A stretch of 64,000 nucleotides of DNA from Candidatus Omnitrophota bacterium (lineage in GTDB: Bacteria > Omnitrophota > Gorgyraeia > Pluralincolimonadales > Pluralincolimonadaceae): the NCBI GenBank assembly GCA_028716565.1, contig JAQUPL010000001.1:409476-473475 (forward strand), in the 5' to 3' direction. Both the position numbers and the translations under genes were made by a program. A model generated the notes under the pieces. The model did no database searches. It was not told the origin of the DNA and saw only the letters and a program-made list of their open reading frames with translations. Each line of letters opens with the position of its first letter. Positions within the stretch are counted from its first letter, which is position 1. Shown piece by piece: positions 696 to 21,063 of this stretch.

Positions 696-2159
696 CTACT
701 CAGGCTGAACCCTTGCGACCGCGAGTCCGCACATCGACCAAAAAAGGACCGCCAGCGGAAGGGAATAGAGGTTGGTATCGACGAAACTATTGACGAGGGT
801 AGCTATTATACATGCGACCGCACCTATTGCGGCAGCTTTCAAGAACTTATCGGAAGTACCCGTAAATTTTGAGATGCCCCGGATAAAAACACTCACGCAG
901 AACCACAAAAAGACCAGAAGGCCTATTATCCCTGTCTCGGCGGCTATCTGGAGGAAACAATTATGGGCATAAACGATCCATTCATAACTAGCGGGTTTAT
1001 ATTTCTCGAATACGCTCATGAATGTATTTAACCCATGGCCGAATAAAGGCCTGTCTAAAAACATCTTCCAGCCTGTCTTCCATATTAAAAATCTGTCCAT
1101 CGAAGAGAGGTCGCTCCCTAATTTAGATAAGGAGCCCAACTGGGCCTTGATATCCGGAGGCGCGATCAACGCAGTTAATGAGACCAGTAAAGCCACTATT
1201 ATGAGCGCGGCAACGAGACGTTTCCAGCCGGTAAAGATAAGAAGAAATAAAAACCCGGCAACGAATCCCAGCCATGCGCCTCTCGCGAAAGTAAGCAGCA
1301 AACAGGCCGCAAGGACCAGGGATATCACTAAAAGCCCGATTTTTTTCTTCCAATTCATCACGCTAAAGGCAATGAGCGCAAGCGGCAAAGGCAACATTGT
1401 CGCTACATAAGTGCCGAAATCATTCGGGGCTTTGAACGCCGCGGTTATTTTCATGTCAGCGAACATGGGGAACTTCCGGAAAAGGTCATAGCCGGCCAAT
1501 CTCTGGTATATGCCGTCTATTCCGGAAAAAAAGGCGGCGATTAAAAAAGAAGAAACAAGATTAAAGACCCTCCTCGGCGTGTTAATTACATCCGCCATTA
1601 TCAGGAATATCAGAAGATATTCCATGGTCTTGAAGAGGAACGCTTCGGCGCTCATCCCAAGCCGCTGGCTTGTGAAGGCAGAGGTTATCAGGCTTACGGC
1701 CATAAAGGATAAGGTTGATGCCTTAAGGCTGAACCCATGATTTGACCTTGCGACCGCCAGGGCTACTATAAAAAAAAGTATGTTCAGGAATATGGCAAAT
1801 AGGGTTATCGGGAGGAAGACCCCGGTCACGAACAGGTCTCCTTCAATATCAAAATGGTGAGAGATGACCGCCAGGGAGATCATGATCGATGAATATACGA
1901 GGAGGACCGCCAGGATACCCACAGGAACGAGGATCTTCAATACATCGTAAGTCGATGCGGGGGGGACAAATGATTTCATCTTCCCTAGCGTCCATTCCCA
2001 TGCTTTGAGGCCGTTTTTATAAAGCCAGATCATTATCGACAATGTGGCAAAGACCTCGACCACGCTCTTGGAGGTGGGAATGAAGAAGACGAGGGTATAA
2101 AGCATATACTCGACGACCTTGTCGCAGGCCGCATAGAGTCTTTGCCTGTCGGCACTCAT
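696..2159 (-). CDS. O-antigen ligase / Wzy_C-family membrane protein (WaaL-type ligase or PglL-type O-oligosaccharyltransferase)
   Basis: 487 aa polytopic membrane protein with the Wzy_C signature YAHNCFLQIAAETGIIGLLVF. Its stop overlaps the downstream start by 4 nt. Confidence 0.7.
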   Translation of the reverse strand: MSADRQRLYAACDKVVEYMLYTLVFFIPTSKSVVEVFATLSIMIWLYKNGLKAWEWTLGKMKSFVPPASTYDVLKILVPVGILAVLLVYSSIMISLAVISHHFDIEGDLFVTGVFLPITLFAIFLNILFFIVALAVARSNHGFSLKASTLSFMAVSLITSAFTSQRLGMSAEAFLFKTMEYLLIFLIMADVINTPRRVFNLVSSFLIAAFFSGIDGIYQRLAGYDLFRKFPMFADMKITAAFKAPNDFGTYVATMLPLPLALIAFSVMNWKKKIGLLVISLVLAACLLLTFARGAWLGFVAGFLFLLIFTGWKRLVAALIIVALLVSLTALIAPPDIKAQLGSLSKLGSDLSSMDRFLIWKTGWKMFLDRPLFGHGLNTFMSVFEKYKPASYEWIVYAHNCFLQIAAETGIIGLLVFLWFCVSVFIRGISKFTGTSDKFLKAAAIGAVACIIATLVNSFVDTNLYSLPLAVLFWSMCGLAVARVQPE

Positions 2160-3946
2160 CTCAGGTATATCCCGCTTACTTGATGGTACTGCGCTCCGCT
2201 CTCCCTGCAGATCGCCTCTATATCCTCTTTTGTCTTGTTATCCGCTGAAGGTATGGCGATGATCACCTCGTCTATCGAGTGTACCTCAACCAACCGCGGG
2301 ATATCGGACCTTACTCCTAATACCGAGACTCCCTGGATCCTCCTGCCCTGCTTCGACGGATCGTCGTCTACAAATCCCACCGGCCAGTAATTAAAGGCCT
2401 TGTTCTTGCGCACCTCGCGAAGGAAGGCATCGCCGGTATCCCCCGCTCCGAAGATCAATATCTTCTTCCCTTTCGCGTCCAGCGAAACGAATATCTGCTC
2501 CTTGAAGAGCCTGAAGGCGACCCTTACCGCGGACATGAGGATCAGCAGGATCATTGCGTCCAGCAGGAATATCATCCTTGAGAAACCCTCGAACCTGAAC
2601 GCTACCACAAGCGCAGTAGCCGAAACCACGGTTCCCAGTATAACGCCTTTGACTATATTCAATATCTCGTTGAGCCCTATATATCTCCAGATATTCCCGT
2701 AAACGCCGGTGATCGAAAAAGCAAGCAGGTTTACCACTATCATTATCGGGAGTGATTTCGCTATCAGTTTAAAATTAAAGGGATCTATTACGCCGTCATA
2801 GCGGATTATATAACTGGAAAAATAAGCGATACAGATCAGACAGAGGTCGCATACTACCTCGAAAATGACCCTCTTATATTTTATCAGGGCGTCGATAAGC
2901 TCGGACTGGTTCTTGTAATATGAAACGCTGCGAGGCAATGTAGCGGCGGTTGCATCCTCTTCCCTGCGGGTCATCTTATTGAGGAACACGCCTAGCGAGA
3001 AGACTACTATGAGGAGCAGCGTCACTACCGTAATGCTTACATATGCCTTCATATACAAAGAAGCGTAGGCCGCAAGCCCGAAGAGGAGCGATATTAAATA
3101 CAGGACCGTGACCGCTTTCCTTTCGTGCCAACCGAGAAAAACCATCCTGTGGGAGGTGTGGTCTTTCCCTCCCTTTGCTACCGACCTCCCGTCTATCGTC
3201 CTGGTCACCGTGACGAAGATCGTATCGAAGATCGGGACCGCGAGCGCCAATACGGGTATAAGCAAGACGAGAAATAGGTGCGAGGCTTCTTTCCATGTCC
3301 CCATGACCGTGATCGAGGCTAGGGTAAAACCCAGGAACATCGCGCCGCAATCTCCCATAAATATCTTAGCCGGATAGAAATTATGCGGCAGGAAGCCAAG
3401 GGCCGCGCCACTCAGTATAAGCGCGAACATGGCCATTTCATGATTATTGAGCGCCAGAGCGCAGGCGAAAACAGTGAGCGAAGCGATCGCGGCAACTCCT
3501 GACGATAAGCCATCCATATTATCGAGCAGGTTAAAGGAATTGGTTATTCCGACGATCCACAGTATAGTCAACGGTATGGCCAACGCCGAAGGTATTATAT
3601 TTATCGAGACCCCCGAAATGACGGTCAGGGAAGCGCAAACTATCTGCCCGACAAGCTTGGACTGAGGGGTCAACCCCTTTAGGTCATCCGCTACTCCGAG
3701 CAAAAATATGGAGGTGCCTCCGATAAGAAGCCCAAACCCTCCCTTTAGGTCCCTGAGATAAACCAGATAGGTTAATATGAACGCGGCATATATCGCCACT
3801 CCGCCCATAATCGGTATGACGTTCTTGTGCCACCTGTCCTCTTTTGGCCTGGCCACAATACCCGCGCGGCCGGCAATCGCTTTTACCAGCGGTGTAAGGA
3901 GGAAACTGATCAAAAATGCCGTCAAAAACAAGTACAAGAATTTCAA
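2156..3946 (-). CDS. polyprenyl-phosphate HexNAc-1-phosphate transferase (WecA/MraY family) fused to a C-terminal 4-TM plus CoA_binding_3-like Rossmann module
   Basis: The N-terminal half carries the conserved NSFNLLDNMDGLSSG and FMGDCGAMFLGF motifs of WecA/WbpL/MraY. The C-terminal roughly 250 aa carry KKILIFGAGDTGDAFLREV...VGFVDDDPSKQGRRIQGVSVLG...VIIAIPSA, which normally forms the N-terminus of WbaP/PglF/CapD proteins. Confidence 0.7.
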   Translation of the reverse strand: MKFLYLFLTAFLISFLLTPLVKAIAGRAGIVARPKEDRWHKNVIPIMGGVAIYAAFILTYLVYLRDLKGGFGLLIGGTSIFLLGVADDLKGLTPQSKLVGQIVCASLTVISGVSINIIPSALAIPLTILWIVGITNSFNLLDNMDGLSSGVAAIASLTVFACALALNNHEMAMFALILSGAALGFLPHNFYPAKIFMGDCGAMFLGFTLASITVMGTWKEASHLFLVLLIPVLALAVPIFDTIFVTVTRTIDGRSVAKGGKDHTSHRMVFLGWHERKAVTVLYLISLLFGLAAYASLYMKAYVSITVVTLLLIVVFSLGVFLNKMTRREEDATAATLPRSVSYYKNQSELIDALIKYKRVIFEVVCDLCLICIAYFSSYIIRYDGVIDPFNFKLIAKSLPIMIVVNLLAFSITGVYGNIWRYIGLNEILNIVKGVILGTVVSATALVVAFRFEGFSRMIFLLDAMILLILMSAVRVAFRLFKEQIFVSLDAKGKKILIFGAGDTGDAFLREVRKNKAFNYWPVGFVDDDPSKQGRRIQGVSVLGVRSDIPRLVEVHSIDEVIIAIPSADNKTKEDIEAICRESGAQYHQVSGIYLR

Positions 3947-3948
3947 GT

Positions 3949-4914
3949 CTAAGCCTTTTCCTTTGTATACATAACAACGTCTTCGATGATAGTCTTTAGA
4001 TCCGCGGTGGGCTTGAACCCTATCAGGTCGCGTATCTTCGTCGTGTCAGGTACCCTCCTCTCCATGTCCTCGAAGCCCTCCTCATAGGCCTTTTCGTAAG
4101 GTATGCGGACTACCTTTGAGCGGCTGCCTGTTATCTCTATGACCTTTTGGGCAAGCCCTTCGATCGTGATCTCTTCCTGGCTCCCGATATTGAAGACCTG
4201 CCCGTAGGCTTTTTGGTTTTCAATGACTTTCGGAAGGGCATTCACAACGTCTTTTACGTGCAGGAAACACCTTGATTGTTTCCCGGAACCGTAAACGGTT
4301 ATATCCCTATTCTCGAGAGCCTGTTTCACGAACCTCGGGACTACCATACCGTATGCCCCCGACTGGCGGGGCCCTACGGTATTAAAAAGCCTGACGATCG
4401 TGGCCGGGACGTTCTTCTCTTTCCAATATACGTAGGCAAGCATCTCGTCCACCGCCTTGGCGGTCGAATAGCTCCATCTCGATTTAAGGGGCGAACCGAG
4501 TATCCTGTCCTGGTCCTCCTTCAGCGGCCCCTGCGTATTCTTACCGTAAATCTCGGACGTGGACGTAATGAGGACCTTTTTATGATAGCGATACGCCATC
4601 TCCAGGACGGTCTCGCTTCCTTTGATATTCGTCGTAAGGGATTCGAGGGGATGATTTACGATAAGCTCGACCCCGACTGCGGCCGCGAGATGGAATATGG
4701 CGTCGCAGCGTTCGGCCAGCTTGTCCACGAGGGATTGATTAAGGATCGTCCCCACAACAAGCTGGAAAGAGGGATTGCTCTCGAGATGTTTCACGTTTTC
4801 TATCTTCCCGGTAGAAAGATCGTCAAGGACGGTCACCTTGTGTCCCTCTCCTACCAGCTTGTCCGACAGATGGGAGCCGATAAAACCGGCCCCTCCCGTG
4901 ATCAGGTAATTCAC
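3949..4914 (-). CDS. NAD-dependent epimerase/dehydratase, UDP-glucuronate decarboxylase (UXS / ArnA C-domain)-like
   Basis: GGAGFIGSH Rossmann motif, ITSTSEIYG, YSTAK (YxxxK), RLFNTVGPRQ and ITVYGSGKQSRCFLHVKDVV match the UXS/ArnA decarboxylase family. GTG start at 4914-4912 is preceded by GGAGA. Confidence 0.6.
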   Translation of the reverse strand: MNYLITGGAGFIGSHLSDKLVGEGHKVTVLDDLSTGKIENVKHLESNPSFQLVVGTILNQSLVDKLAERCDAIFHLAAAVGVELIVNHPLESLTTNIKGSETVLEMAYRYHKKVLITSTSEIYGKNTQGPLKEDQDRILGSPLKSRWSYSTAKAVDEMLAYVYWKEKNVPATIVRLFNTVGPRQSGAYGMVVPRFVKQALENRDITVYGSGKQSRCFLHVKDVVNALPKVIENQKAYGQVFNIGSQEEITIEGLAQKVIEITGSRSKVVRIPYEKAYEEGFEDMERRVPDTTKIRDLIGFKPTADLKTIIEDVVMYTKEKA

Positions 4915-4975: not shown

Positions 4976-6154
4976 TCAATCCCTTTGGCGAAGCGCCTCT
5001 TCGTAAAGGGCTTTCATATCCTTCACAAGGCGCTCTTTGGAATATTTCTGCAGGACTTTCCGGCGGCCGTTCCTGCCGAATTCGTCCCGTTTTTCAGGAT
5101 CCACGGCCAGCTCAAGGAGGCGTTTTGCGAAACCCGCGGCATCTCCCGAAGCGACGAGACAGCCATTTATCCCGTCATCCACTACATCCTTCACGCCGCC
5201 CACATCGGTCGATACGACAGGCCTGCCGGCAGCGAGCGCCTCTATCAAAGCTACGGGAGTGCCTTCATTAAACGATGTCAGGGCGATGATATCCAGGTCC
5301 GCATATACATCGGCCATCTCCTCTTTCCATCCGTGAAAGACGATCTTCTCGCGGATCCCTGACTTCTCCGCATATCCTTCAAGCCCTGCTCTCTCTTCCC
5401 CGTCACCGATCACGATGCACTTTATATCCCGTCCGCCTGCCTTATCAAATAATTTCTTGCAGGCATCCAAAAACATCCTGTGGTTCTTGACCGGAACGAG
5501 CCTTCCGATTATCCCTATCAGGACGCAGTCATTGCCGATACCCAGCTCATTCCTGAGCTTCCCTTCCCTCGACCCGATCGAAGATAACACATCCAACTCC
5601 AGGCCTAAGGGCACTACTTTTACTTTTTCATCGCCGGTTATCTTATATTTTTTAATTATCTCTTTTTTCTGCGTCTCGCTGACTACCACTATATATTTGG
5701 AAAAAAAAGCCAGGGATCTCTCTATGAAAAGAAAGACACCGGCAGAGAAACTATTGAAATAACTCTCAAATATATGCCCGTGGAAAGTGTGTATCCTGAC
5801 CGGGATCCCCGCCAAAATTGCCGCGGCCCTTCCCAATGCACCGGCCTTGGCTGTATGGGTATGCACTATATCCGGCCTCTCCCGCCGCATGATCAAGTAC
5901 ATCTTCCATAGCGCTATGAGATCGTTTACCGGATCGATCCTTCGCCCCAATTCCGGGATGATAAGCGGTTCTACGCCTTTTCCCCTGGCCAAATAGCCCA
6001 TATCCTTTTCATCGATACCGACCCTGCCCGTAACCAGGATAGACCTGTAATATTCGTCATTTAAGGCTTGCGTCAAGAGGATGGTGTGAATGGCCGGGCC
6101 GCCTACATTCAGGCGGGCGATGATCCTGAGGACCTTCAGTTTTTTTGGGGTCAT
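4976..6154 (-). CDS. glycosyltransferase family 4 (GT-B)
   Basis: 392 aa with the EGTPVALIEALAAGRPVVSTDVGG (E-x7-E) GT4 motif. Confidence 0.7.
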   Translation of the reverse strand: MTPKKLKVLRIIARLNVGGPAIHTILLTQALNDEYYRSILVTGRVGIDEKDMGYLARGKGVEPLIIPELGRRIDPVNDLIALWKMYLIMRRERPDIVHTHTAKAGALGRAAAILAGIPVRIHTFHGHIFESYFNSFSAGVFLFIERSLAFFSKYIVVVSETQKKEIIKKYKITGDEKVKVVPLGLELDVLSSIGSREGKLRNELGIGNDCVLIGIIGRLVPVKNHRMFLDACKKLFDKAGGRDIKCIVIGDGEERAGLEGYAEKSGIREKIVFHGWKEEMADVYADLDIIALTSFNEGTPVALIEALAAGRPVVSTDVGGVKDVVDDGINGCLVASGDAAGFAKRLLELAVDPEKRDEFGRNGRRKVLQKYSKERLVKDMKALYEEALRQRD

Positions 6155-6501
6155 TTAAAAATTTTACTTAAAATAAAACTGTTCTTCTTGATCTCCTGCC
6201 AGCCGGTTTCGCAGGAAAATCCGCCCAGGCATAAAATTAAGACTGCGCTTTTTATTATCATATCAAGTAAACTCATTTCCTTGTGAAGCGCTAAATCCAA
6301 AAAAATATTCACCATGACCGCCGTAAATATAAAAATAGACGCCGATCTGACCGCTTTATTGAAAAAGCCTTGTTTGATCCTTGATAACAAGACCGCTGTT
6401 TTGCTGTTTTTTATTAAATCCCCGATGATCGACCGCGATTCACCGTAGAAACCGGACAGCCACGCCGCGACCTTGCTTTCCTCTGTCACTCTTTGGTTCA
6501 T
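6151..6501 (-). CDS. small hypothetical membrane protein
   Basis: 116 aa, two hydrophobic segments, AT-rich. It has 4-nt overlaps with both neighbours, which suggests translational coupling. Confidence 0.35.
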   Translation of the reverse strand: MNQRVTEESKVAAWLSGFYGESRSIIGDLIKNSKTAVLLSRIKQGFFNKAVRSASIFIFTAVMVNIFLDLALHKEMSLLDMIIKSAVLILCLGGFSCETGWQEIKKNSFILSKIFK

Positions 6502-7028
6502 TTATTCCCTTTTTTCTCCGCTAAGTGCGCATTGTCAAAATCTATTATCACGCCCTGGAAATTATAACTATCAGTACTTAATACTACACTATTACCTATT
6601 TTCACGGCGTAATTGTTAAAAAATAAAACCCCTCTCTCTTCCGTGCAATTTACATCAAATAAACACACGACATCCCTGCCGCTCGGGTTCGGGACTAAAA
6701 AATAATCGTTGTTCCTCAGGTTGAACTGGTTTATAGTGATGATCTCCGAAGGTACGTTGCTGATGATCTTCTTTAAGACCCCTATCGTATTGCCTTCGTT
6801 ATCCTTGACTATATCCCCTTCGCGGAAAAAACCCGCTAATTCGGGCATGACACTGGCGCATTTGATCTTTATAGAGATTTTTTTATAATCTTTAACAGCC
6901 CATTTATGCGTCAATGCCTTATTCCCTAAATAAAATACCGGCGTAAGGCCCAGCAAGAACAGGATCACCAGAAAATCAATAAGGTTGATCCTGCCGAATA
7001 TTTTCCCTTTCTCATCGATAAACTTCAT
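6498..7028 (-). CDS. hypothetical protein with N-terminal TM anchor, DUF4330-like
   Basis: N-terminus MKFIDEKGKIFGRINLIDFLVILFLLGL resembles the DUF4330 family from memory. 176 aa. Confidence 0.4.
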   Translation of the reverse strand: MKFIDEKGKIFGRINLIDFLVILFLLGLTPVFYLGNKALTHKWAVKDYKKISIKIKCASVMPELAGFFREGDIVKDNEGNTIGVLKKIISNVPSEIITINQFNLRNNDYFLVPNPSGRDVVCLFDVNCTEERGVLFFNNYAVKIGNSVVLSTDSYNFQGVIIDFDNAHLAEKKGNK

Positions 7029-7056: not shown

Positions 7057-8931
7057 TTAAATATAACCGTTCAACCAATAATAAAAGATGGCCAGATATT
7101 CACGGAATATGCCCTCTATCTGCGCAAAGCTGATCTGCTTCCAACTCCCCCCGGCATAAAAATCATCCGTCCTGTGCTTATAAAATGAATTTTTTTTCAC
7201 CGGGGTATAGGCCACTTCCAGCCCCTTGCCGGTCTTTTTAAATACAAGCGAGACCCGCCGCATATGATACGGGGAGCTTACCACGAGGATCTTGTTCCAT
7301 CCCTTATTTTTCAATATCTCCTCTGAAAATACGACATTTTGATAAGTGCTCATCGCCTTGTCTTCCAGGATGATCGCATCTTCGGGCACTCCCAGTGAAA
7401 CGGCGATGACTTTCATCATGACAGGCTCTTTGAAAATATACATATATCCCGAAGAAAAAATGATATTCTTAGCGAAACCAGCCTTATATAGCTCGACCGC
7501 GTATTCGGTCCTTTCCAGGTAACCTTGGCCTACCTTCCCCGATTCGCCTACGCCCCCGGCAAATACCACAATTGCGTCAGCCTTGCGCGGAACATCGGTT
7601 ATCTTGAGCGGCCCCGCCAAAAACCAGACAAGCGGGGTGTAAAAGATGATGAGGTAAATAAACGCTACGGCTACGGCGAGGCGCGCCAGGCGCTTTTGCG
7701 CCTTCCGGTAAAAGGCGAGCAGGTTCTCTTTCCAGCCGGCCTCGTTCCGGGCCATCTTTTCTTCAACGGCTCCCTCTATAAGCCGGCTCATCTCCTCGAT
7801 CCGGTTCTTCCAGCTGTTCTTTTGGGCATAGGCGACCCGCTTCTCTATCATACTGCTGTCATCTTCGCCCAAGGCCTTATCGATACAGGCGCTGAACTCT
7901 TCCTTATTTTCCGCTATATAAATTATGTTCCCGTATGTTTTTTTCACATGCCTGAGCTCGGGCAGGCCCGTAGAAACGACGCTTTTGCCCAACGCCAGAT
8001 ACTCGTTCAGCTTTGCCGGATAGATGCATTCGGTGAACTCGTTTATGAGATACGGTATGACCGCCACATCAAAATTATTCACGTAATTCGGCAACTCGTC
8101 GTGGGATTTCTGCCCCAGGAAATATATGTTTTTCAGCCGCGCAAGCTCCCCGACGTCCATCTGCAAAGGCCCTACAAACACAAAGGAATATTCAGGGTGC
8201 GACTCGGCCAGGTATTTGATCAACTCCTTGTCCAGCCACTTCCTCACCCCGCCCGAAAAGCCGATCACCGGCCTCCTGATGCCCTTCATGTCTACGGGCA
8301 AATCAGCCGCGCCCGTCTTACCCCTGTCGAATTTATCTATATTTACGGTGAACGGGAATTTATAGACCATTTCGTTAAACTGCGAGCAGTACGAGTAAAG
8401 CTTGTCCGCCGTAACGAATACCAGGTCGCTCATCCCAATGACCTTTTTCTCGTATTGCTCTACTTTTTTCGCCGTAGATGAGACCAGCTTAAGGTTATCA
8501 AGGCAGTAGTATATTAGTAATTTCCTGTCGATCCCGTTGATAAGGTCAAGGGTAAGGGCGGTGGGCAGAAAAACCCAGATTATGGGGTTTGTGAAATTTA
8601 GCGCCTTCATCCATTTTTTCAGGACGGATAAGATCATTATCCTGTTGATCCATCGGGCAGGCCTGAAATACGGGAAAGGCACGACCAGCGGCGAAAGGAT
8701 ATAGAGATTCGCGGATTCCTTTCTCACTCCTTTTACTCCCCTGAACCAGTTCTTGAACCTCTTTTTTATGCGCGAGATGTCCCTCACTCCCGGCATCCGC
8801 ACCCCGGTGTTCTCTATGAAAAACACCTTATTGCCGTTCTTGGCCAAAGTCAGCATTATCTCTTGATGCCCCTGCCAGATGAAATCCCAGTCTATGCTGG
8901 ATATGCAGATAATATTTTCGTTTTTGATCAT
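7057..8931 (-). CDS. GT-B glycosyltransferase fused to C-terminal DUF218 (YdcF/ElyC/SanA-like) domain
   Basis: N-terminal ICISSIDWDFIWQGHQEIM and a GT1/GT4-like core. C-terminal ADAIVVFAGGVGESGKVGQGYLERTEYAVELY...VVSSPYHMRRV matches DUF218. Confidence 0.6.
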   Translation of the reverse strand: MIKNENIICISSIDWDFIWQGHQEIMLTLAKNGNKVFFIENTGVRMPGVRDISRIKKRFKNWFRGVKGVRKESANLYILSPLVVPFPYFRPARWINRIMILSVLKKWMKALNFTNPIIWVFLPTALTLDLINGIDRKLLIYYCLDNLKLVSSTAKKVEQYEKKVIGMSDLVFVTADKLYSYCSQFNEMVYKFPFTVNIDKFDRGKTGAADLPVDMKGIRRPVIGFSGGVRKWLDKELIKYLAESHPEYSFVFVGPLQMDVGELARLKNIYFLGQKSHDELPNYVNNFDVAVIPYLINEFTECIYPAKLNEYLALGKSVVSTGLPELRHVKKTYGNIIYIAENKEEFSACIDKALGEDDSSMIEKRVAYAQKNSWKNRIEEMSRLIEGAVEEKMARNEAGWKENLLAFYRKAQKRLARLAVAVAFIYLIIFYTPLVWFLAGPLKITDVPRKADAIVVFAGGVGESGKVGQGYLERTEYAVELYKAGFAKNIIFSSGYMYIFKEPVMMKVIAVSLGVPEDAIILEDKAMSTYQNVVFSEEILKNKGWNKILVVSSPYHMRRVSLVFKKTGKGLEVAYTPVKKNSFYKHRTDDFYAGGSWKQISFAQIEGIFREYLAIFYYWLNGYI

Positions 8932-9754: not shown

Positions 9755-11260
9755 TTAGGCGGTAAGGTAGGGTTCCAGTAATTTTGTCACAGGACCCAGA
9801 TCCCTGCTATCATAATACCGGTCAACCATTTCGTTTATATCTTTCTTGTTTACTTTCTCTTCCAGGGCCAGGAAAGAGATATACATTGCCAAACGGTTAA
9901 TAAAAGAAACGTCGTTGTCCCTCCCGTCGATATTTACTTTATAATATTGCACGCCTTCGGGCGGTTTATAAAAATCATCTGTATCGGCTTCTGTGATGAA
10001 CCCGCGCTCCAGGGCCATATTGGTTATTTCTGTCTTTGGAAAATATTTTAAAGAAAACAGGTTAAGGTAGAACGGCTGGGGCAGCTCCAGGATAAGCTTG
10101 ATGCTTTCAAGCGAATCTTCGAATGTTTCGAACGGGTTATCGAAAATGAAGTCGTATTTCACATTTATGCCGTATTCCTTGAATACTTCCGCCTGTTTCA
10201 GGACTTTTTCATTCGGGTAAAACCTTTTGAAGATATCCCTCCTTATCCTCTCGGACCCCGATTGTACTCCGAGCCAGACCCCGTTCAGCATTGCTCCCTT
10301 CAACGCTTTTGCCGTCTCCCTTGAGCATGTCCCGGGATAGAAAAAACAGTAAAAAGGCAGGGCAACCTCTTTCAGATACTTGCCGCAAAATTCCTCCAAC
10401 CATGCCTTGTCCGGGATAAAGACTTCATCCAGGAAATCTATCCTTTCTATTTTCGGGAATCTCGCCTTGATCTCGGACAGTTCCGACAGCACGTGGCTGA
10501 CGCTCCTGTGCCTCGTCTTAGACCAGTCCCGGTGATAGACCTTGTTTGCCATGTATTCATTGGAGCAATATGTGCATTTATAGGGGCAACCCCTGCTGGC
10601 CATGATGCCGTACCGGACATTATTCACAAAAGGCTCTCCCGGGATCAAACTGCCGTCTTCGATGGAATATACGGTCTCATCATTAAAAACCGGTACGGGA
10701 TTGTTGTTTAGGTCCTTAACCAGAGGCCGCACGCCATTTTTTACCGTAGCCCCGGCTTTATTGACCCATAAATTCTGCAAATGGTCGATCGGCCGGCCGT
10801 TGAACAAGCTGTCAACGACCTCGGATATGGTTTCGTCTCCCTCGCCGATACATAACGCATCGCAATATTGTATGGTATGCTCGGGGTTAAGGGATGCCTG
10901 CCAGCCCCCTATTATAATGGTAAAATCGCCGAGGCCGCGGATCTTGCTATATATTTTCTTATAAAGCTCAAAGTTCGATGATACCAGGCTGAATGCTATT
11001 ACATCGGGTTTATAATCTACGACGAAATCCGCAAAGATCTGTAATTCAGTATCTGTCAATTCATTCGGTTCGTGTAAAAACGACTTTTTCAGGTACTCTT
11101 GTCCTCTCTGGTTCCTTATGGGGAATTTCTTGATAAAGACCATCCGGGCATCGTAACCTTTATGGTAGACGATCGAATGCAACAGCCTTATATTCAAGGC
11201 CTCATCGTTAAACAGCGAGGCGAACAGGACGCGGAATTGTTTTTTATCTTTCATATCCAT
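9755..11260 (-). CDS. B12-binding (class B) radical SAM protein
   Basis: N-terminal cobalamin-binding-like Rossmann region followed by RGCPYKCTYCSNEY (CxxxCxxC). Confidence 0.75.
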   Translation of the reverse strand: MDMKDKKQFRVLFASLFNDEALNIRLLHSIVYHKGYDARMVFIKKFPIRNQRGQEYLKKSFLHEPNELTDTELQIFADFVVDYKPDVIAFSLVSSNFELYKKIYSKIRGLGDFTIIIGGWQASLNPEHTIQYCDALCIGEGDETISEVVDSLFNGRPIDHLQNLWVNKAGATVKNGVRPLVKDLNNNPVPVFNDETVYSIEDGSLIPGEPFVNNVRYGIMASRGCPYKCTYCSNEYMANKVYHRDWSKTRHRSVSHVLSELSEIKARFPKIERIDFLDEVFIPDKAWLEEFCGKYLKEVALPFYCFFYPGTCSRETAKALKGAMLNGVWLGVQSGSERIRRDIFKRFYPNEKVLKQAEVFKEYGINVKYDFIFDNPFETFEDSLESIKLILELPQPFYLNLFSLKYFPKTEITNMALERGFITEADTDDFYKPPEGVQYYKVNIDGRDNDVSFINRLAMYISFLALEEKVNKKDINEMVDRYYDSRDLGPVTKLLEPYLTA

Positions 11261-12481: not shown

Positions 12482-13191
12482 TCCTCGGCAACCGGTTTTT
12501 TCATGAAATACATAAATCTCCTAAGCGGAGATTGGATCGCGCCCCTGCTTAGCCTCCATTTCTGAAAGTTTATAGAATCCAAATTTTTGAAAAATTTTTC
12601 ATAGTTACCGGGGATATCTCTTTTAATGCCGCTGACGGCTTTCCAGTCTCCCCCGGATAAGTCTGAAATGCCGGCTATCTGGCCTTTTTTGTTCACGAAA
12701 TAGACGCCGTTATAGACGTCAAAAACGGCCCACGTACCCCTTAAGTTCACGAACGACAAAGGTTTCCTCCCCTCCCCCGTTTCTGAATATACGTCATAAA
12801 AGAAGGAATTGACGTTTGCGTAGTTACAGAGGGTGGTAAAAACGTCCTGGAACTGGTCGTCGACCGCGTATCCCCTTATAATGATATGCCAGACATGATC
12901 GTCTATTATGGGTAATTCCTTCGGATTGTCCTTTAAGTTTGCGCGTGTCCATTCAAATATCTTCATCGCCTTATCTTCGTCGCTTTTGGCGCCCGAGACT
13001 ATCTTCTTCGCCAGGACCCCATAATTATAATGCCTGTCAAAGAAATCCAGTAATTTAAGATATAAAGGCAGCTTGACGGCATGGACTTTATAATTTACTC
13101 CCTGCAGGGTCGTGACCTCCAGGTTAAGGAGGAGCGCCGTTACGGCCAAAGCGGCGATACAGCCCAGCAACCCGTATCTGTATTTTTTCAT
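12478..13191 (-). CDS. hypothetical exported or membrane-anchored protein (last gene of the long minus-strand unit)
   Basis: N-terminal hydrophobic signal/anchor LLGCIAALAVTALLL; no confident family assignment. Confidence 0.45.
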   Translation of the reverse strand: MKKYRYGLLGCIAALAVTALLLNLEVTTLQGVNYKVHAVKLPLYLKLLDFFDRHYNYGVLAKKIVSGAKSDEDKAMKIFEWTRANLKDNPKELPIIDDHVWHIIIRGYAVDDQFQDVFTTLCNYANVNSFFYDVYSETGEGRKPLSFVNLRGTWAVFDVYNGVYFVNKKGQIAGISDLSGGDWKAVSGIKRDIPGNYEKFFKNLDSINFQKWRLSRGAIQSPLRRFMYFMKKPVAED

Positions 13192-15089
13192 ATCGCGGTA
13201 TCCATGAATTTTTTATGCCACAATTCGAGCATCAAGATCGCCCATAACTGGAATGCGTAATCTTTTTTCCCGGAGGTATGGTCTTCGACCATCCTCTTTA
13301 TCGCGCCGGGTTTAAAATACCCCCTTTTAAGAGAGGGCGCGGAAAGCACCGTGTCGCATAAGAAACCCTTGAGTTCCCCCCTGAACCATTGCCCGACCGG
13401 CATTCCGAACCCCATCTTTCTCCTGCGGATATTCTCTTCCGGAAGCAGCCCTTTGACGGCCTTTCGCAGGATGTATTTCTTTGTGCCCCGCCTGATCTTA
13501 AAATCGGAAGGCAGCTTTGCGGCAAACTCGATGAGTTTATGGTCGAGGAACGGAGACCTCGCTTCGAGGGAGTTAGCCATACTGGCTATATCAACCTTGA
13601 CCAGCAGGTCATCGGGCAGGTACGTCGAGGTATCGGCCAAAAGAAGGCGGTCCAGCAGATCCGGTTTGCCGGGGCGATTTAAGTAAGGTTCCAGGATAGC
13701 TAAAGGACCGGATGAACGGGTCTCTTTTAAAAACTCGTCCGAATACAACTCATCCGGGCGGACCTCCCCCAGGATACCGGCCCACCTTAGGTACCTCTCT
13801 CCCGCCGGCAGCCCCGCGCTGCCTAAAAATCTCTTTAACCGCCTGAGCGTATCTTTTTGATTGACAGAATCGGGAAGGATGCCCGCTAACCCGCTTATCA
13901 TGTTTCTTAAGTATATGGGTAATTTTTGCAGGTTTTCCGAGATCAGCATTGCCTGGTATCTCTCGTACCCTCCGAATGCCTCGTCGCCGCCGTCGCCGTT
14001 CAAGGCTACCGTCACGAATCGCCTTGTCTCCCGGCAGACGTAATAAGTAGGTATACAGGAGGAGTCGGCATAAGGTTCCCCGTACCTTTCTACCAACAAA
14101 GGAAGGATCTCAAGCGCGTTCGGTTTCACGATAAACTCGTGATGTTCCGTCGCGAATTTTCCCGCGACCATCCTTGCGTATTTAAGCTCGTTGTAATCGG
14201 ATTCCTCAAAACCTATTGAAAAAGTCTTTACTTTAGCGCCGGATACCTGGCTCATCAGGCCTACTACCGCGCTTGAGTCGATTCCTCCGCTTAAGAAAGC
14301 CCCCAAAGGCACATCGCTGTATAACCTGATTTTTACCGCTTCTTTGAGCAATCTTAAGACTTCCTCCGAGGCTTCTTCTTCCGAAATATTTATTTTGCCG
14401 GAATAATCAACCTGCCAGTACCGTTCCAGGCGGATATTTCCGTCTTTCAATGTCAAGGTATGCGCCGCCGGAAGCTTAAAGACGCCGTTATAGATCGTGA
14501 ACGGGGCCGGCACATAACCGAAATTCATATAATAATCAACCGCCTTGAGATTTATACTTTTATTGATTAAGCCGCTTGCCAAAATTGATGAAAATTCAGA
14601 CGCAAAACAAAAAATATTCCCCGATCGGCAATAGAGAAGCGGCTTTTTCCCTACCCTGTCTCTCCCCAAAAAAAGGTTTTTCTTTTTTTCATCCCATACC
14701 GCAAATGCAAACATGCCGCGGAGATGCCTTACGCACTCCTCTCCGTAAGTTTCGTAAAGATGTACCATGACCTCGGTGTCTGAATCAGACTTGAATATAT
14801 GCCCTCTCATTTTCAGTTCATCTTTTAGATCTTTGTAATTATATATCTCTCCGTTAAAGACCAGCTGGACCGACCCGTCCTCATTGCTCATTGGCTGGTG
14901 GCCTGCCTGGGACAGATCAATGATGCTTAGTCTCCTATGGCCCAGGGCTACGGAAGGAATCCCGTTGTTCAGATAAATACCCCCGTCATCCGGGCCCCTG
15001 TGCCTCAATTCCCTGCACATATCCTTTATCGTCTTTTCTCCCGCAATACCGCTCCCTATATGATCGACGATCCCGCAAACACCGCACAT
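13188..15089 (-). CDS. asparagine synthase (glutamine-hydrolysing) family amidotransferase (WbpS-like)
   Basis: MCGVCGI N-terminal nucleophile Cys and SGGIDSS PP-loop; 633 aa. Confidence 0.8.
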   Translation of the reverse strand: MCGVCGIVDHIGSGIAGEKTIKDMCRELRHRGPDDGGIYLNNGIPSVALGHRRLSIIDLSQAGHQPMSNEDGSVQLVFNGEIYNYKDLKDELKMRGHIFKSDSDTEVMVHLYETYGEECVRHLRGMFAFAVWDEKKKNLFLGRDRVGKKPLLYCRSGNIFCFASEFSSILASGLINKSINLKAVDYYMNFGYVPAPFTIYNGVFKLPAAHTLTLKDGNIRLERYWQVDYSGKINISEEEASEEVLRLLKEAVKIRLYSDVPLGAFLSGGIDSSAVVGLMSQVSGAKVKTFSIGFEESDYNELKYARMVAGKFATEHHEFIVKPNALEILPLLVERYGEPYADSSCIPTYYVCRETRRFVTVALNGDGGDEAFGGYERYQAMLISENLQKLPIYLRNMISGLAGILPDSVNQKDTLRRLKRFLGSAGLPAGERYLRWAGILGEVRPDELYSDEFLKETRSSGPLAILEPYLNRPGKPDLLDRLLLADTSTYLPDDLLVKVDIASMANSLEARSPFLDHKLIEFAAKLPSDFKIRRGTKKYILRKAVKGLLPEENIRRRKMGFGMPVGQWFRGELKGFLCDTVLSAPSLKRGYFKPGAIKRMVEDHTSGKKDYAFQLWAILMLELWHKKFMDTAI

Positions 15090-16181: not shown

Positions 16182-17378
16182 TCAGGTCAGCCTTCGGTAG
16201 ATCATGCTGTATTTATCGATCCCCTGCTCAAGCGAAAAATATTCTTTCGCGGAGGAGACACACTTCTTCCTGAGGCCTTCACTTACAGGTAATAATCCCG
16301 ATGCCTTCACTGCGGCTTCTTCGATCCCTCCGGGGCCTGAAAGATCGGCGACCACGCCTACGTTTTCCCTGTTTATCACCTCTTCCGTATCGCCGATGCC
16401 GGAATTGATCACTACCGGCAGGCCGCAGGATAAGCTTTCGGCAAATTTTATGGGGGAGCAGCCCGCCGAGGAGAGCCGGCGCTTATAGAACATTATTGAC
16501 AGGGCCGAGGAGGATAAGGCAAGCGGAATATCCTTGCGGGATAGACCGGTTACCGCAAAATCATGCCTGTCTATGCCGTGTCCCAAAATAACGCCCTCGA
16601 CCTCCCCGGCCGCGGAATTCGTGACCAGCCAGAAATAGGCGCCGCGGATCTTTTCCTTTAAGGCCTTAAAAAAAAGCGCCATCCCATCCAGGTCGTAAAA
16701 CGTCCCGGTGCTTCCTAAATATATTAAAACGGGCCTGTTCATTGCGTCACCGGGCAGGATATCCCCCCGCGGTTTCGGACCAAAGAACCCGGTATCAACG
16801 CAGCACGGGATGACCGTGATCGCGGCCCCGGGGAAATCCTTCTTCAGGGACCTCTCCGCCGACCCGGCCAGGACGACTATCTCATCGCTTCCTTTTATAA
16901 GCATCCTCTCTATCTTCTTGAATAACGCATAGACCGGGCTGCCTTTCTCCCAGGCACCTGCGTCGACTTTTTCGTCCGGCCAAAAACCCCTCATGTCAAA
17001 TATTAATCTTTTCCCGGCCACCCGCTTAAGAAAGAGCCCTATCAGCGCAGGGATATATCCCCTTGCGTGCACGGCCCCGACATCGCCCTTTCGTATACTT
17101 GATAACGCCGAACAAGAACCCTTTATAATGTCATAAACAGTGGCCGGGATCGCGGGTGACCTGTGGTATTTTAACGGTCCCCAGGTTATGCCGTTCTTTT
17201 CCAGCTCCGCCTTGACCTCCTCCCGGCCCTTCCCTGCGCCCATTCTTTCCTTCTTCTCGAAACTGATGACGGAGATGCCGAATCCCCTGTTTGACAATCC
17301 CTTGAGATACGGCAAGACCTGAGATTGGGCTACCGGGTCCATCAGGCCGTCATAAGTGATATACAGGATCTTCTTCAT
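16182..17378 (-). CDS. glycosyltransferase family 4
   Basis: 398 aa, GT-B, Glyco_trans_4 N-domain and GT1-type C-domain. Confidence 0.65.
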   Translation of the reverse strand: MKKILYITYDGLMDPVAQSQVLPYLKGLSNRGFGISVISFEKKERMGAGKGREEVKAELEKNGITWGPLKYHRSPAIPATVYDIIKGSCSALSSIRKGDVGAVHARGYIPALIGLFLKRVAGKRLIFDMRGFWPDEKVDAGAWEKGSPVYALFKKIERMLIKGSDEIVVLAGSAERSLKKDFPGAAITVIPCCVDTGFFGPKPRGDILPGDAMNRPVLIYLGSTGTFYDLDGMALFFKALKEKIRGAYFWLVTNSAAGEVEGVILGHGIDRHDFAVTGLSRKDIPLALSSSALSIMFYKRRLSSAGCSPIKFAESLSCGLPVVINSGIGDTEEVINRENVGVVADLSGPGGIEEAAVKASGLLPVSEGLRKKCVSSAKEYFSLEQGIDKYSMIYRRLT

Positions 17379-18802
17379 GAACCCCGGTTATCTGCCCGTT
17401 GTCTTGTAAGGGCGTACGCCGCAAATATAAAAGCGACGGGTATGAACATGTCTTTATGCCGGAAAGCCGTCCCGATATTGCTTTCGAAAAGAGCGGCAGG
17501 CAGGATAAGCACCAAGAGTAAAGCCGTGAGCGTAAGCGAGGTATACTTATCCTTCTTCAGGAAAAGCAACCATCCCGTTACGGTAAACGGGGCCATTAAA
17601 TACCAATAAATGACCTGCGGATAAAAAGGCAGGAAGCTCAGGCTCCAGTTCCCGAACGGGAACGGTGCAAAGAAAAAATACAAGATCGCTTTTAGGATAG
17701 TCGCAAGGTATCCGAAAGAAAAGACATCTCCGGGCGACAGCTTACCCTGCTGGTAGACCAGATCCGAGTATATCCTGTAATTTGTCTGAGAAGGATGGTA
17801 TGCCCCGCCCGAAACTACCTGGGCAAGGTTAATTCGGGCAATGAAATTAGCGGTATTTACGATCTTTGAGGTTATTGTCGTCCTATCCGCAAATACAAAC
17901 GCTAAGATAAAATATACGGCGAAGATCAAAGATACCCTTAGGATAGTGCTTTTCCCTACCTTAAGCGCTTTTAGAAGGGCGAATACAGAAACCACGCCCA
18001 ATCCTGCCAACAATGATATTGATAACTTAGTCCTGAAGAGGTTCGATAGATATATAAAAAGCAGGGCCCAGAATATATATTTAAACTTCTTTTCCGTGAT
18101 CAGCTTGACAAGGAATAATAAATAAGCCAAAAGCAAAAAATTACTGACGCTGTCGCGCAAGCCGGTGACAGACCAGTAGAAAATAGACGGGAAGAACGCA
18201 AAAATTACGGCGGCGATACGCGAGGGCTTCTCCTCTCCAAAGAGCCGGCGGGAGATCAAATACACAAGAATAATGCTTAAGCAGCAAATAAGGCTGTTGG
18301 TCATTTTAGCCGCGACCGGCGCATAACCGAGCCACGCATAAAAAACGCCCAACCCAAAAACATTACTGTCGAATTGGTATCCCCCGAGGTCGGGCAGCCG
18401 GTTGTCATGGAAGTACCGCGTCTTATCAAGCATCCTGTCCAAGAACGGGTCCCTGGCCCTGGCAAGGTTTTCTTCCGCGGGATTATCCTTCAACAAATGA
18501 GAGATATAAAAGGCGTTAACATTGTAGACTGCGGCGTCAGGCTGGGTATCTCCTCCCCAGAAAGGAGGCTCGAGGCCTACATTATAATTGACCAGGCACA
18601 TTGCCGCCCTGAGGATAAAACTTATGATGAAAAGTTTTATCAGGAAACTTGAGGATTCTTTTTTAAAAAATAGTTTTATTGCGAGCAGGGACGCCAAAAA
18701 AAGGGACAGGACGAATAAACCGGCGGTATAGAACGTCAAAATAAAGCCGAGGACGATCCCCAGTAAAATATATGAGAATACCGCTATTTTATTCAAGATC
18801 AT
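17375..18802 (-). CDS. polytopic membrane protein, GT-C (ArnT/PMT, GT39/83)-like or Wzy-like
   Basis: At least 10 TM segments. YLISRRLFGEEKPSRIAAVIFAFFPSIFYWS resembles the ArnT/PMT loop region. Confidence 0.4.
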   Translation of the reverse strand: MILNKIAVFSYILLGIVLGFILTFYTAGLFVLSLFLASLLAIKLFFKKESSSFLIKLFIISFILRAAMCLVNYNVGLEPPFWGGDTQPDAAVYNVNAFYISHLLKDNPAEENLARARDPFLDRMLDKTRYFHDNRLPDLGGYQFDSNVFGLGVFYAWLGYAPVAAKMTNSLICCLSIILVYLISRRLFGEEKPSRIAAVIFAFFPSIFYWSVTGLRDSVSNFLLLAYLLFLVKLITEKKFKYIFWALLFIYLSNLFRTKLSISLLAGLGVVSVFALLKALKVGKSTILRVSLIFAVYFILAFVFADRTTITSKIVNTANFIARINLAQVVSGGAYHPSQTNYRIYSDLVYQQGKLSPGDVFSFGYLATILKAILYFFFAPFPFGNWSLSFLPFYPQVIYWYLMAPFTVTGWLLFLKKDKYTSLTLTALLLVLILPAALFESNIGTAFRHKDMFIPVAFIFAAYALTRQRADNRGS

Positions 18803-19755: not shown

Positions 19756-21063
19756 CTACCAAAGCCCTATCTTTTGGAATATGGACCTGAAGAACACTTT
19801 TGTTTCATATGAGGCCGCATAAAAACATACGTTCAACATAAAGTAACCGCTTATCAATAGGCCGGGAAAAATCTTATTCCTGGACCTGCGGATAAAATGG
19901 AAAATGCCTGCGGCGCCGATCATGATAATATACGGTTCAATAGGCAGGCGGAACCTCGGCGAACCGTAGAACACCAAAGAAACGCAAAAAGAATAGATAA
20001 TAGGCAGATAGACAGGAGCCAACTCCCAGGACCTTTTGGAATTAACAAATATGCCTAAGATGAAAAACGGCATAATGAACGCATACATGTAATTATACAC
20101 GCCGTTACCCAGGATCTCCCAATCGAAGACGCTCCAGAAATAAACGGTCTTTAATACCTCCAGTTTTAGGACACGCAGCGGGTTGTTTTTTATATATTTT
20201 AGCGCCTCTTTTGCCAGGAAATCGCTTTGCGCAGCCTCGGATCCTAATGACCTGGACTTTTCCACGACTTCATCACTGGCGATAAAGCCGTATAATTTCC
20301 CCTCTCTGGGCACATATGAGCTATAAAGCCCTATTCCCATCGTGGTGGAAATGGGGATAAAACGATGGGTCACTTTCCAGTTCCTGACGGTCCAGGGAGC
20401 TATCGGCAGTATAAAAAAAGTCAGCAGGATGGCCGCACTTATAATATACTTTTTGACGCTGCGGGCATGGGAGAGAAAGATCTTTCCCATCACCAGAAGG
20501 ATAAAAAAGGGAAGCAGGACTATAACAGAGCGCGTGAGCGAAGCTATCCCCAACGCGGCCCCGCAAAAGGCCAAATTCCCATAACCGCCGTTCTGGATAA
20601 ACCTTAAAAGGAAGAATATGATCGAGATAAGCAAAAAGGTATAGAGGAGCTCAGTTATCATAAGCCCGGTGGTCCTGATAAATGCCGGGTAAAAACAACA
20701 GATCAACGCGCCCAAAACGGCTGTTTTGGCGTCGAATAATCGCCTTGCTGTCATAAAAATTATTACGCATGTCAACGCGCCTATGATCGCCTGGATAACT
20801 TTAACGGCCGCGTAGTTATTGCCGAATATATGATATAGCGACGCCAGGAAAAAAGGATAAAACGGCTCTTTGAAAGTAGTAGGCTTCCCGTCCACGCTGA
20901 ATCCCTTGCCCTCGAGGATGTTCCCGGCAAGGCCGTTGTAATAAAGGGAATCCGGCGTAAGGACCTGTCCTTCGGAAAGGGCTGCATAGAGCCGCGGCAG
21001 CAGAGCCACGGCAAAGATCGCCAGGGCGATCAATATTGTTCTTTTCATTTCATGATAACCCAA
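19756..21063 (-). CDS. GT-C family membrane glycosyltransferase (GT39/GT83, ArnT/PMT-like)
   Basis: MTARRLFDAKTAVLGALICCFYPAFI motif, multi-TM. Probable start MKRTIL at about 21048. Confidence 0.6.
   Translation of the reverse strand: MGYHEMKRTILIALAIFAVALLPRLYAALSEGQVLTPDSLYYNGLAGNILEGKGFSVDGKPTTFKEPFYPFFLASLYHIFGNNYAAVKVIQAIIGALTCVIIFMTARRLFDAKTAVLGALICCFYPAFIRTTGLMITELLYTFLLISIIFFLLRFIQNGGYGNLAFCGAALGIASLTRSVIVLLPFFILLVMGKIFLSHARSVKKYIISAAILLTFFILPIAPWTVRNWKVTHRFIPISTTMGIGLYSSYVPREGKLYGFIASDEVVEKSRSLGSEAAQSDFLAKEALKYIKNNPLRVLKLEVLKTVYFWSVFDWEILGNGVYNYMYAFIMPFFILGIFVNSKRSWELAPVYLPIIYSFCVSLVFYGSPRFRLPIEPYIIMIGAAGIFHFIRRSRNKIFPGLLISGYFMLNVCFYAASYETKVFFRSIFQKIGLW

Follow-up and report, generated by a model that had tools for sequence, protein, structure and literature searches.

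Near the downstream end of a tightly packed array of minus-strand genes, which fills almost all of the 64,000-nucleotide stretch analysed here (the window; contig JAQUPL010000001.1 of assembly GCA_028716565.1, from a Candidatus Omnitrophota bacterium) up to ~63500, lies a gene at 2156-3946 that joins a polytopic phosphoglycosyl transferase (PGT) to a membrane-plus-Rossmann-like module otherwise known only at the front of WbaP-type enzymes and of PglF/CapD. This fusion gene is real, intact, widespread and unstudied; no paper describing a protein with PF00953 plus PF13727 was found in the open-access literature. It encodes 596 amino acids (aa) from a TTG start, which is supported by the equal length of homologues at 91% identity, and its stop codon shares the sequence ATGA with the ATG start of the following gene (2156-2159; positions are those of the window, and all window features given below lie on its minus strand). 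A sequence-only reading of this DNA had proposed a two-domain fusion at these positions; exactly this open reading frame (ORF) was found, and its translation contains every string that had been quoted (FMGDCG at residues 196-201, KKILIFGAGDTGDAFL at 494-509, VGFVDDDP at 523-530 and VIIAIPSA at 561-568). Pfam placed Glycos_transf_4 (PF00953) on residues 72-216 (E = 2.2e-35, 122.4 bits against a cut-off of 27) and CoA_binding_3 (PF13727) on residues 412-576 (E = 1.5e-16, 61.4 bits against a cut-off of 25), so that both domains stand above their gathering thresholds in one frame, and the C-terminal assignment to CoA_binding_3 held along with the N-terminal one. Among the NCBIfam models, TIGR03025 and the WcaJ model aligned to residues 366-590 at their positions 2-221 to 2-226 only, and the WbaP model aligned to the tail at positions 2-206 only, these regions being the non-catalytic N-terminal halves of the models; the large monotopic PGT models TIGR03022, TIGR03023 and TIGR03025 reached 55-85 bits against cut-offs of 295-411. 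Neither a Bac_transf (PF02397) catalytic domain nor a Polysacc_synt_2 (PF02719) dehydratase domain was matched in the protein by Pfam or NCBIfam. The reversed domain order and the missing partner catalytic domain that had been read from the letters are correct for this protein, in which nothing follows the module. By hydropathy and AlphaFold2 modelling, 11 transmembrane (TM) helices come first and a linker that is disordered comes next; four long TM helices then lead into a beta-alpha domain of five strands and three helices. The full-chain AlphaFold2 model (69-sequence alignment) had a predicted local distance difference test score (pLDDT) of 82.5 and a predicted template modelling score (pTM) of 0.74, with disorder at residues 333-351 only, and the loop charges and motif positions all fit an N-out, 11+4 TM arrangement. 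We regard the product as a genuine single-chain membrane enzyme with ~15 TM helices. No second copy of either the module or the PGT was found elsewhere in the 64-kb window.

The N-terminal part of the protein (residues 1-321, 2984-3946) is a polytopic PGT domain of the WecA/MraY fold, as judged from PF00953, NCBIfam, Foldseek and hydropathy. Hydropathy predicts ~11 TM helices with the N-terminus outside and the C-terminus in the cytoplasm, and places every catalytic motif in a positively charged cytoplasmic loop. The domain shares 27% identity with E. coli WecA (367 aa, E = 9e-19), and its AlphaFold2 model, compared with the PDB by Foldseek, matched MraY and human DPAGT1 (E = 4e-10, target-normalised TM-score 0.70-0.75). 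The wecA model TIGR02380 scored 105.4 bits on residues 7-320, below its equivalog cut-off of 326, and the MraY model TIGR00445 scored 67 bits, below its cut-off of 192; because of these scores we did not file the fusion as WecA and assigned no sugar to it. Conservation was assessed in two sets: residue counts were taken over the aligned members of 80 species loci, obtained by scanning one genome per GTDB species, and regional identities and column conservation over 69 homologues. The DD motif, D87-D88 (3683-3688), corresponds by alignment to D90/D91 of E. coli WecA; it is invariant in the 69 homologues, and Asp occupies the two positions in 77/77 and 76/77 aligned species, respectively. The next motif, NSFNLLDNMDGL (residues 136-147, 3506-3541; WecA counterpart NAFNMVDGIDGL), contains D142 and D145, which align with WecA D156 and D159. 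A NxxNxxDGxDGL motif had been announced for this region, and such a motif is present, but it reads DN-x-DG rather than DG-x-DG; N143 is kept in 78/78 aligned species, making DN-x-DG a family-specific variant. FMGDCG (residues 196-201, 3344-3361) corresponds to FMGDAG of WecA, with D199 being Asp in 79 of the 80 species, and DHTSH (residues 262-266, 3149-3163), in the last large cytoplasmic loop, aligns with the HIHH region of WecA and has His at both H263 and H266 in 80/80 species. Altogether the catalytic residues D87/D88, D142/D145, D199 and H263/H266 are kept in 76-80 of 80 species. Since they are in register with those of WecA and conserved, we regard residues 1-321 as an active priming PGT, a polyprenyl-phosphate sugar-1-phosphate transferase.

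The rest of the chain consists of a linker and the module. The linker (residues 322-354, 2885-2983) is cytoplasmic and variable, with pLDDT <50 at 333-351 and a pairwise identity of 0.26. It is followed by a four-TM-helix bundle (residues 355-476, 2519-2884), delineated by hydropathy, by AlphaFold2 (helices 347-382, 389-412, 425-450 and 457-489) and by alignment to the TM part of the TIGR03025, WcaJ and WbaP models and to the WbaP structure 8T53. D367 belongs to the first bundle helix (TM12), and a WRY loop with Y416 and W420 lies at 2681-2689. Because the 11-TM, N-out topology leaves the chain in the cytoplasm before the bundle, the tail would be oriented as in WbaP and PglF/CapD, and in the model D367, Y416, W420 and R475 would all lie at the cytoplasmic membrane interface beside the soluble domain. 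This last part, the cytoplasmic Rossmann-like domain (residues 477-596, 120 residues, 2159-2518), is the PF13727 'CoA_binding_3' domain of unknown function (DUF), recognised by Pfam, by the structure 3nkl and by Foldseek, and its modelled elements run b1-aA-b2-b3-aB-b4-aC-b5, after which the protein ends. The tail modelled alone again gave four long helices and a Rossmann-like domain (pLDDT 91.8). The few residues beyond b5 were modelled as a short helix in the full-length chain and as a strand of two residues in the module alone; neither model has a WbaP-type beta-hairpin after the DUF. Two motifs stand out in the domain: the glycine-rich loop after b1, G500-A-G-D-T-G505 (2432-2449), invariant in the 69 homologues, and GFVDDD at the acidic end of b2 (residues 524-529, 2360-2377), which is kept across the fusion family and the PglF-like proteins. 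In a Foldseek search of the PDB with the isolated tail, the top match was S. enterica WbaP (8T53; E = 1.4e-6, 251 columns); 3nkl superposed on the DUF with a root-mean-square deviation of 1.2 A at 30% identity, and after these two entries came the NAD(H) domains of Rex and the N-domain of VioB/PglD. By both sequence and structure matches the DUF resembles the nucleotide-sugar-binding N-domain of PglD/VioB. GAGxxG and the acidic b2 end together suggest that a nucleotide-type site has been conserved, with a likewise conserved patch at the membrane interface beside it.

The sequence-only reading had called for a search for the same architecture in other genomes, and many were found to have it. 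In a homologue search of 5.8 billion proteins, the same two domains were present in 120/120 homologues among the matches listed (43-91% identity; a few entries are truncated), nearly all of which were 590-612 aa long and most of which were labelled Candidatus Omnitrophota; in databases such proteins, which number in the thousands, go by the names 'hypothetical protein' or 'UDP-GlcNAc:undecaprenyl-phosphate GlcNAc-1-phosphate transferase'. Glycos_transf_4 and the module occur in one ORF at 80/80 species loci, one of them (L057) with a local split that falls within the Glycos_transf_4 part. These loci span at least 10 phyla, the taxa being Omnitrophota, Planctomycetota (Scalindua, Fuerstiella), Desulfobacterota, Chloroflexota, Nitrospirota, Acidobacteriota (Pyrinomonadaceae, Blastocatellia, Vicinamibacterales, Thermoanaerobaculia, Terriglobales), a Heliomicrobium metagenome-assembled genome (MAG), Dormibacterota, Rhodothermales and Acidimicrobiia. 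A profile built from 18 cross-phylum sequences matched 5,319 clusters at E<=1e-30, the best 120 of which were all Glycos_transf_4 plus module. No cultured organism was found among the best matches, all of which were MAGs or metagenomes. Candidate extra N-terminal domains in the long stop-to-stop ORFs of L049, L073 and L042 were rejected, Pfam being empty there, and the extra length is probably upstream sequence that happens to lack stops in genomes rich in GC. Mean pairwise identity among the 69 homologues was 0.52 in the catalytic domain, 0.26 in the linker, 0.53 in the four-helix bundle and 0.50 in the Rossmann-like domain, and the share of columns conserved at >=90% was 25%, 3%, 20% and 24%, respectively. 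Across species, D367, W420 and R475 are each kept in 80/80 and Y416 in 79/80; in the glycine loop, G500 is kept in 78/78, G502 in 74/78 and G505 in 76/78, and at the b2 end D527 is Asp in 77/78 and D528 in 69/78. By these alignments the tail is under purifying selection and as conserved as the catalytic domain, and its pattern does not look like that of a decaying remnant.

The module had been likened to those of WbaP, PglF and CapD alike. Judged by profile scores it is a membrane-plus-DUF module of the PglF/CapD/WbpM type and homologous to that of WbaP only distantly: a tail profile gave 116-186 bits on the N-termini of Polysacc_synt_2 proteins and 18 bits on E. coli WcaJ, so that the PglF/CapD half of the comparison stands and the WbaP/WcaJ half is reduced to a remote kinship. 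The motifs LRF, GxYxxIWRY, GAGxAG, GFxDDD and IIxxP are in register between the tail and the PglF-like N-termini. Against PDB sequences the tail matched 3nkl (E = 1.3e-10), Rex (E = 2e-5) and WbaP (E = 0.1); 3nkl, deposited as Vibrio fischeri UDP-D-quinovosamine 4-dehydrogenase, is in our reading a DUF fragment from a protein of the WbpM kind. When the 5.8 billion proteins were searched with the tail alone, the matches were mostly fragments, those outside the fusion family were all Polysacc_synt_2 or 'FlaA1/EpsC-like' proteins, and no Bac_transf protein was among them. When 1.84 billion cluster representatives (50% identity) were searched exhaustively by phmmer, again with only the tail as query, 12,300 of them matched at E<=1e-3, of which 420 reached E<=1e-30. 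The best 150 comprised, by a breakdown that was Pfam-confirmed for a sample only, 85 proteins with Glycos_transf_4 plus module, 44 fragments, 14 with module plus dehydratase (PglF-like), 4 with Bac_transf plus module plus dehydratase and 3 with Glycos_transf_4 plus module plus dehydratase. Some database proteins, namely P0152, P0158 and the 400-aa P0153, which comes from a 52-kb contig, seemingly consist of the module alone, flanked on neither side by a recognisable catalytic domain, and may be complete genes or fragments. Four proteins of the representative library (P0304, P0308, P0318 and P0322; 765-890 aa) have Bac_transf (residues 2-194) followed by the four-TM-helix (4TMH) bundle, PF13727 and Polysacc_synt_2; they are the monotopic counterpart of the polytopic PGT fusions, with an intact dehydratase in the two that were examined (P0304, P0318).

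The tripartite relatives of the window protein bear on its origin. P0074, P0177 and P0187, cluster representatives of 936-975 aa, carry Glycos_transf_4, the module and Polysacc_synt_2 in one chain; P0074 (L081:8001-10868) is present in two independent assemblies, with a DegT aminotransferase, an oxidoreductase-acetyltransferase, Wzx, two GT1 genes (glycosyltransferases of the Glycos_transf_1 type) and a Wzy_C-TPR gene as neighbours. The absence of the partner catalytic domain, true of the window protein, is thus not universal in the wider family, a few relatives keeping Polysacc_synt_2 after the module in degenerate form. Their dehydratase domains score 139-178 bits, compared to 360-396 bits for canonical PglF-like domains; the NAD glycine motif is kept, but S-T-D-K, whose Asp-Lys pair we take to be the catalytic residues in C. 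jejuni PglF, now reads SIEK, STSK or SSIK and lacks that Asp, and several other conserved dehydratase blocks are also lost. From their sequences these domains look like pseudo-dehydratases. The findings are compatible with an origin of the family from a fusion of a polytopic PGT with PglF, in which the dehydratase would have decayed and been lost and the bipartite form would then have radiated. A simple 'split PglF' was rejected, as no PglF-type dehydratase gene was found within ~8 kb of the 80 fusion loci.

The genes around the fusion are transcribed in the order methyltransferase, GT-DUF218, DUF4330, small membrane protein, GT1, SDR, fusion, Wzy_C and GT9. Directly upstream lies an extended short-chain dehydrogenase/reductase (SDR) of the UXS/ArnA type by Pfam and NCBIfam (321 aa, with STSEIYG and YSTAK; 3949-4914), to which human UXS1 is the nearest among solved structures (E = 5e-56), and next to it the conserved partner that we call GT1, a GT4-family glycosyltransferase identified by Pfam as Glycos_transf_1 (4976-6154). 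Downstream is a membrane protein of the Wzy_C type (O-antigen ligase/polymerase-like, 487 aa; 696-2159; PF04932, E = 1e-26), directly followed by a GT9 heptosyltransferase-like open frame (PF01075, E = 1e-10) that occupies 2-700 and runs off the window start; two other Omnitrophota loci, L001 and L052, likewise have a GT9 gene downstream. This arrangement hints that the Wzy_C protein may act on an acceptor resembling the lipopolysaccharide core. Further upstream are a predicted membrane protein of 116 aa with no Pfam match (6151-6501) and, next to it, a DUF4330 gene (6498-7028; ortholog upstream in L001); the two lie between GT1 and a 624-aa protein (7057-8931) whose GT1-type glycosyltransferase region is fused to a DUF218 domain at the C-terminus. 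Close orthologs of this protein (E ~1e-190) lie not far from the PGT fusion at L052 and L076. Beyond these the array contains B12-binding radical-SAM enzymes (9755-11260 and 21045-22436), an asparagine-synthase homologue (13188-15089), PMT_2 GT-C proteins (17375-18802 and 19756-21063), and, at ~9.7-22.4 kb, several further GT1 glycosyltransferases and one or more methyltransferases. No tRNA gene was found in the 64-kb window. Neighbours were counted at the 80 fusion loci, using only those with enough flank (50-61). An ortholog of the SDR is directly upstream on the same strand in 29/58 loci, a GT1 ortholog lies within 3 kb in 35/58, a Wzy_C gene is downstream in 25/61, and at least one of the three partners is present in 38/50. 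The SDR orthologs are very strongly conserved across phyla (phmmer E = 1e-100 to 1e-158). A cassette of GT1, UXS/ArnA-like SDR, fusion, in some cases a TPR protein, and Wzy_C recurs at L002-L007, L009-L019, L028, L029, L052, L054, L066, L078 and others, covering Omnitrophota, Acidobacteriota, Planctomycetota, Chloroflexota, Nitrospirota, the Heliomicrobium MAG and Dormibacterota; in Pyrinomonadaceae it reads methyltransferase, NTP-transferase, GT1, SDR, fusion, TPR protein, Wzy_C and AMP-binding enzyme. It is a reasonable inference that the product of this cassette is a short glycan linked to undecaprenyl diphosphate (Und-PP).

Phosphoglycosyl transferases commit the scarce carrier undecaprenyl phosphate (Und-P) to a given surface glycan, and to our knowledge little is known of how this step is regulated. 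The analysis establishes the architecture and its conservation, the topology, the fold, the closest relatives and the gene neighbourhood; what is said here of the sugar transferred, of a ligand, of regulation and of the course of evolution goes beyond this and is inferred. The explanation that we favour with moderate confidence is that of an active priming PGT equipped with a cis-acting regulatory or oligomerisation tail of PglF/CapD origin. The PGT domain would probably move a sugar-1-phosphate of the N-acetylhexosamine type from a UDP-sugar to Und-P, releasing uridine monophosphate (UMP). The adjacent GT1 would extend the glycan primed in this way, perhaps by a pentose that the neighbouring UXS-like SDR provides, and the downstream Wzy_C protein would ligate or polymerise it. 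The tail is non-catalytic and most likely a cis-acting module for regulation, oligomerisation or both; it may bind a nucleotide, by analogy a uridine nucleotide or UDP-sugar, at the GAGxxG/DDD site beside the D367/Y416/W420/R475 patch, and could thereby tune priming activity to the UDP-sugar supply or to UMP. Its probable ancestor would be the N-terminal module of a PglF/CapD-type dehydratase, the dehydratase domain of which decayed and was then lost.

Published work on related enzymes supplies the functional analogy. In WbaP, most of the dimer interface comes from the PF13727 DUF, which swaps a beta-hairpin, the DUF is stabilised by UMP, UDP and UTP, and UMP inhibits WbaP at ~4 uM (eLife 2024;12:RP91125). 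The same study presents the 4TMH bundle and the DUF as N-terminal domains of large monotopic PGTs, terms the like N-terminal domains on PglF-type dehydratases puzzling, and names no accessory module in its description of the polytopic PGTs (eLife 2024;12:RP91125). UDP-MurNAc-pentapeptide and lipid II are reported to inhibit full-length CapD (Nat Commun 2019;10:1404), and a response regulator activates the PGT EpsZ, as proposed from structural modelling via a stabilised DUF-mediated dimer (mBio 2025). A regulatory or scaffolding role for the tail, which the sequence-only reading had suggested, is plausible because it fits the WbaP DUF data and the strong conservation of the module. Several points weigh against the explanation as we have put it. 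The WbaP dimer mechanism is not directly transferable because the beta-hairpin is absent; binding of a uridine nucleotide is an extrapolation because the module is remote from the WbaP DUF with its degenerate glycine loop; and, going by the Rex matches, a dinucleotide such as NAD(H) would be equally compatible with GAGxxG and an acidic b2 end. The PGT domain scores far under the WecA and MraY equivalog cut-offs, so any sugar specificity given for it is tentative, and a neighbour-joining tree of 83 modules was star-like and speaks neither for nor against the tripartite forms being ancestral. Because the hairpin is missing, GAGxxG is intact and the kinship is remote, the identity of the ligand may differ from that in WbaP, and so may the manner, or even the occurrence, of dimerisation.

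Among the alternatives, we hold it unlikely that the tail senses nothing and instead acts as a scaffold, docking the soluble UXS-like SDR, GT1 or both and channelling a nucleotide-sugar or lipid intermediate between them, in the manner of a split PglF, where an SDR is covalently joined to a like module. The recurrence of the SDR directly upstream (29/58) and of GT1 nearby (35/58) across phyla is consistent with such a metabolon, as are the SDR-fold domain that directly follows the module in PglF-like and tripartite proteins and the absence of a separate UXS-like SDR gene from the tripartite locus. However, the adjacent SDR is UXS/ArnA-like and belongs to another SDR subfamily than Polysacc_synt_2, none of the three partner genes is nearby in 12/50 well-flanked loci, and the GAGxxG/DDD site, being invariant, suggests that the tail binds a small molecule. 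A tail that docks partners could also sense a ligand, the two roles being compatible.

More doubtful is the idea that the tail is a relic of the fusion between a polytopic PGT and PglF, kept for membrane insertion or stability and having neither ligand nor partner. It draws on the decaying dehydratase of the tripartite proteins (STDK to SIEK, STSK or SSIK) and on the PglF type of the module itself, but a tail that is as conserved as the catalytic domain while the linker drifts freely, whose glycine loop, acidic b2 end and D367/W420/R475 show next to no variation across 80 species of at least 10 phyla, and whose architecture dominates thousands of clusters, is hard to reconcile with it. We give still less credence to a redox or dinucleotide sensor, in which the Rossmann-like domain would bind NAD(P)(H) as Rex does and couple glycan initiation to the redox state: matches to Rex were obtained from PDB sequences (E = 2e-5), NCBIfam (E = 5e-6) and Foldseek (E = 1.6e-5), and the domain has the classical GxGxxG with an Asp at the b2 end, but its nearest relatives are all attached to enzymes that use UDP-sugars, and the sole experimental ligand screen on a PF13727 domain gave uridine nucleotides (eLife 2024;12:RP91125). 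That the ORF is an artefact, a wecA-like and a truncated pglF/capD-like gene merged by frameshift or misassembly, has next to no chance of being true, since no support for it was found (the split ORF of L057, one locus in 80, falls inside the Glycos_transf_4 part), while the frameshift that the sequence-only reading had named as its own refutation is contradicted by the same continuous ORF in hundreds of independent assemblies from many phyla, recurring across homologues, species loci and profile matches, and by a self-consistent topology with a whole-chain pTM of 0.74.

Each part of the protein comes from a known family and the combination is new, and the proteins concerned are now annotated as 'hypothetical protein' or plain WecA. 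Sequence comparison points to a large family of polytopic PGTs with a PglF-type module, found in at least 10 phyla and thousands of clusters, in which the nucleotide-type site appears intact, and to a conserved cassette of GT1, UXS-like SDR, PGT and Wzy_C in poorly studied phyla such as Omnitrophota, Acidobacteriota and Planctomycetota. As a third setting in which the 4TMH-DUF module occurs naturally, the fusion opens the module's function to experiment in a system that is easy to truncate, and it narrows the common ground of the three host enzymes to the chemistry of UDP-sugars or UMP on the membrane surface. We tentatively raise the possibility that 4TMH plus PF13727 is a portable membrane-interface sensor, captured independently by the two evolutionarily unrelated PGT superfamilies, monotopic and polytopic, and by PglF/CapD, the first committed UDP-GlcNAc dehydratase, and that it would exert a common feedback on entry into glycan pathways that depend on Und-P; UMP or UDP-sugar would be read at the GAGxxG/DDD site, and the pool of Und-P or Und-PP-linked intermediates might be read at the D367/W420/R475 patch. 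If this were true, the polytopic PGT fusion family would be a natural experiment for identifying the shared ligand.

Set against known systems, the fusion combines features of each without coinciding with any. With the polytopic PGTs of PF00953 (WecA, WbpL, TagO) it shares the MraY/DPAGT1 fold, the 11-TM, C-in topology and the catalytic motifs, but its C-terminal module of ~250 residues is absent from the characterised members with which it was compared, E. coli WecA having 367 aa and the solved chains of MraY and DPAGT1 ~300-420 aa. The last 250 residues of the fusion correspond to the N-terminal module of the PglF/CapD/WbpM dehydratases (4TMH plus PF13727 plus PF02719); unlike in these, Polysacc_synt_2 is absent, and the module is C-terminal on another enzyme rather than N-terminal on its own. 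The large monotopic PGTs (WbaP, WcaJ, CpsE and EpsZ; 4TMH plus DUF plus Bac_transf) follow the same logic of a priming PGT with a bundle and PF13727, whereas the catalytic domain of the fusion comes from the unrelated polytopic superfamily and is N-terminal to the module; in addition, the beta-hairpin of WbaP is absent from the fusion, and GAGxxG, degenerate in WcaJ, is intact in it. In the PglC::PglF-type fusions (P0304, P0318) a priming PGT likewise stands N-terminal to a PglF-type module, but there the PGT is small and monotopic and the dehydratase is intact (STDK/SSDK, 360 bits).

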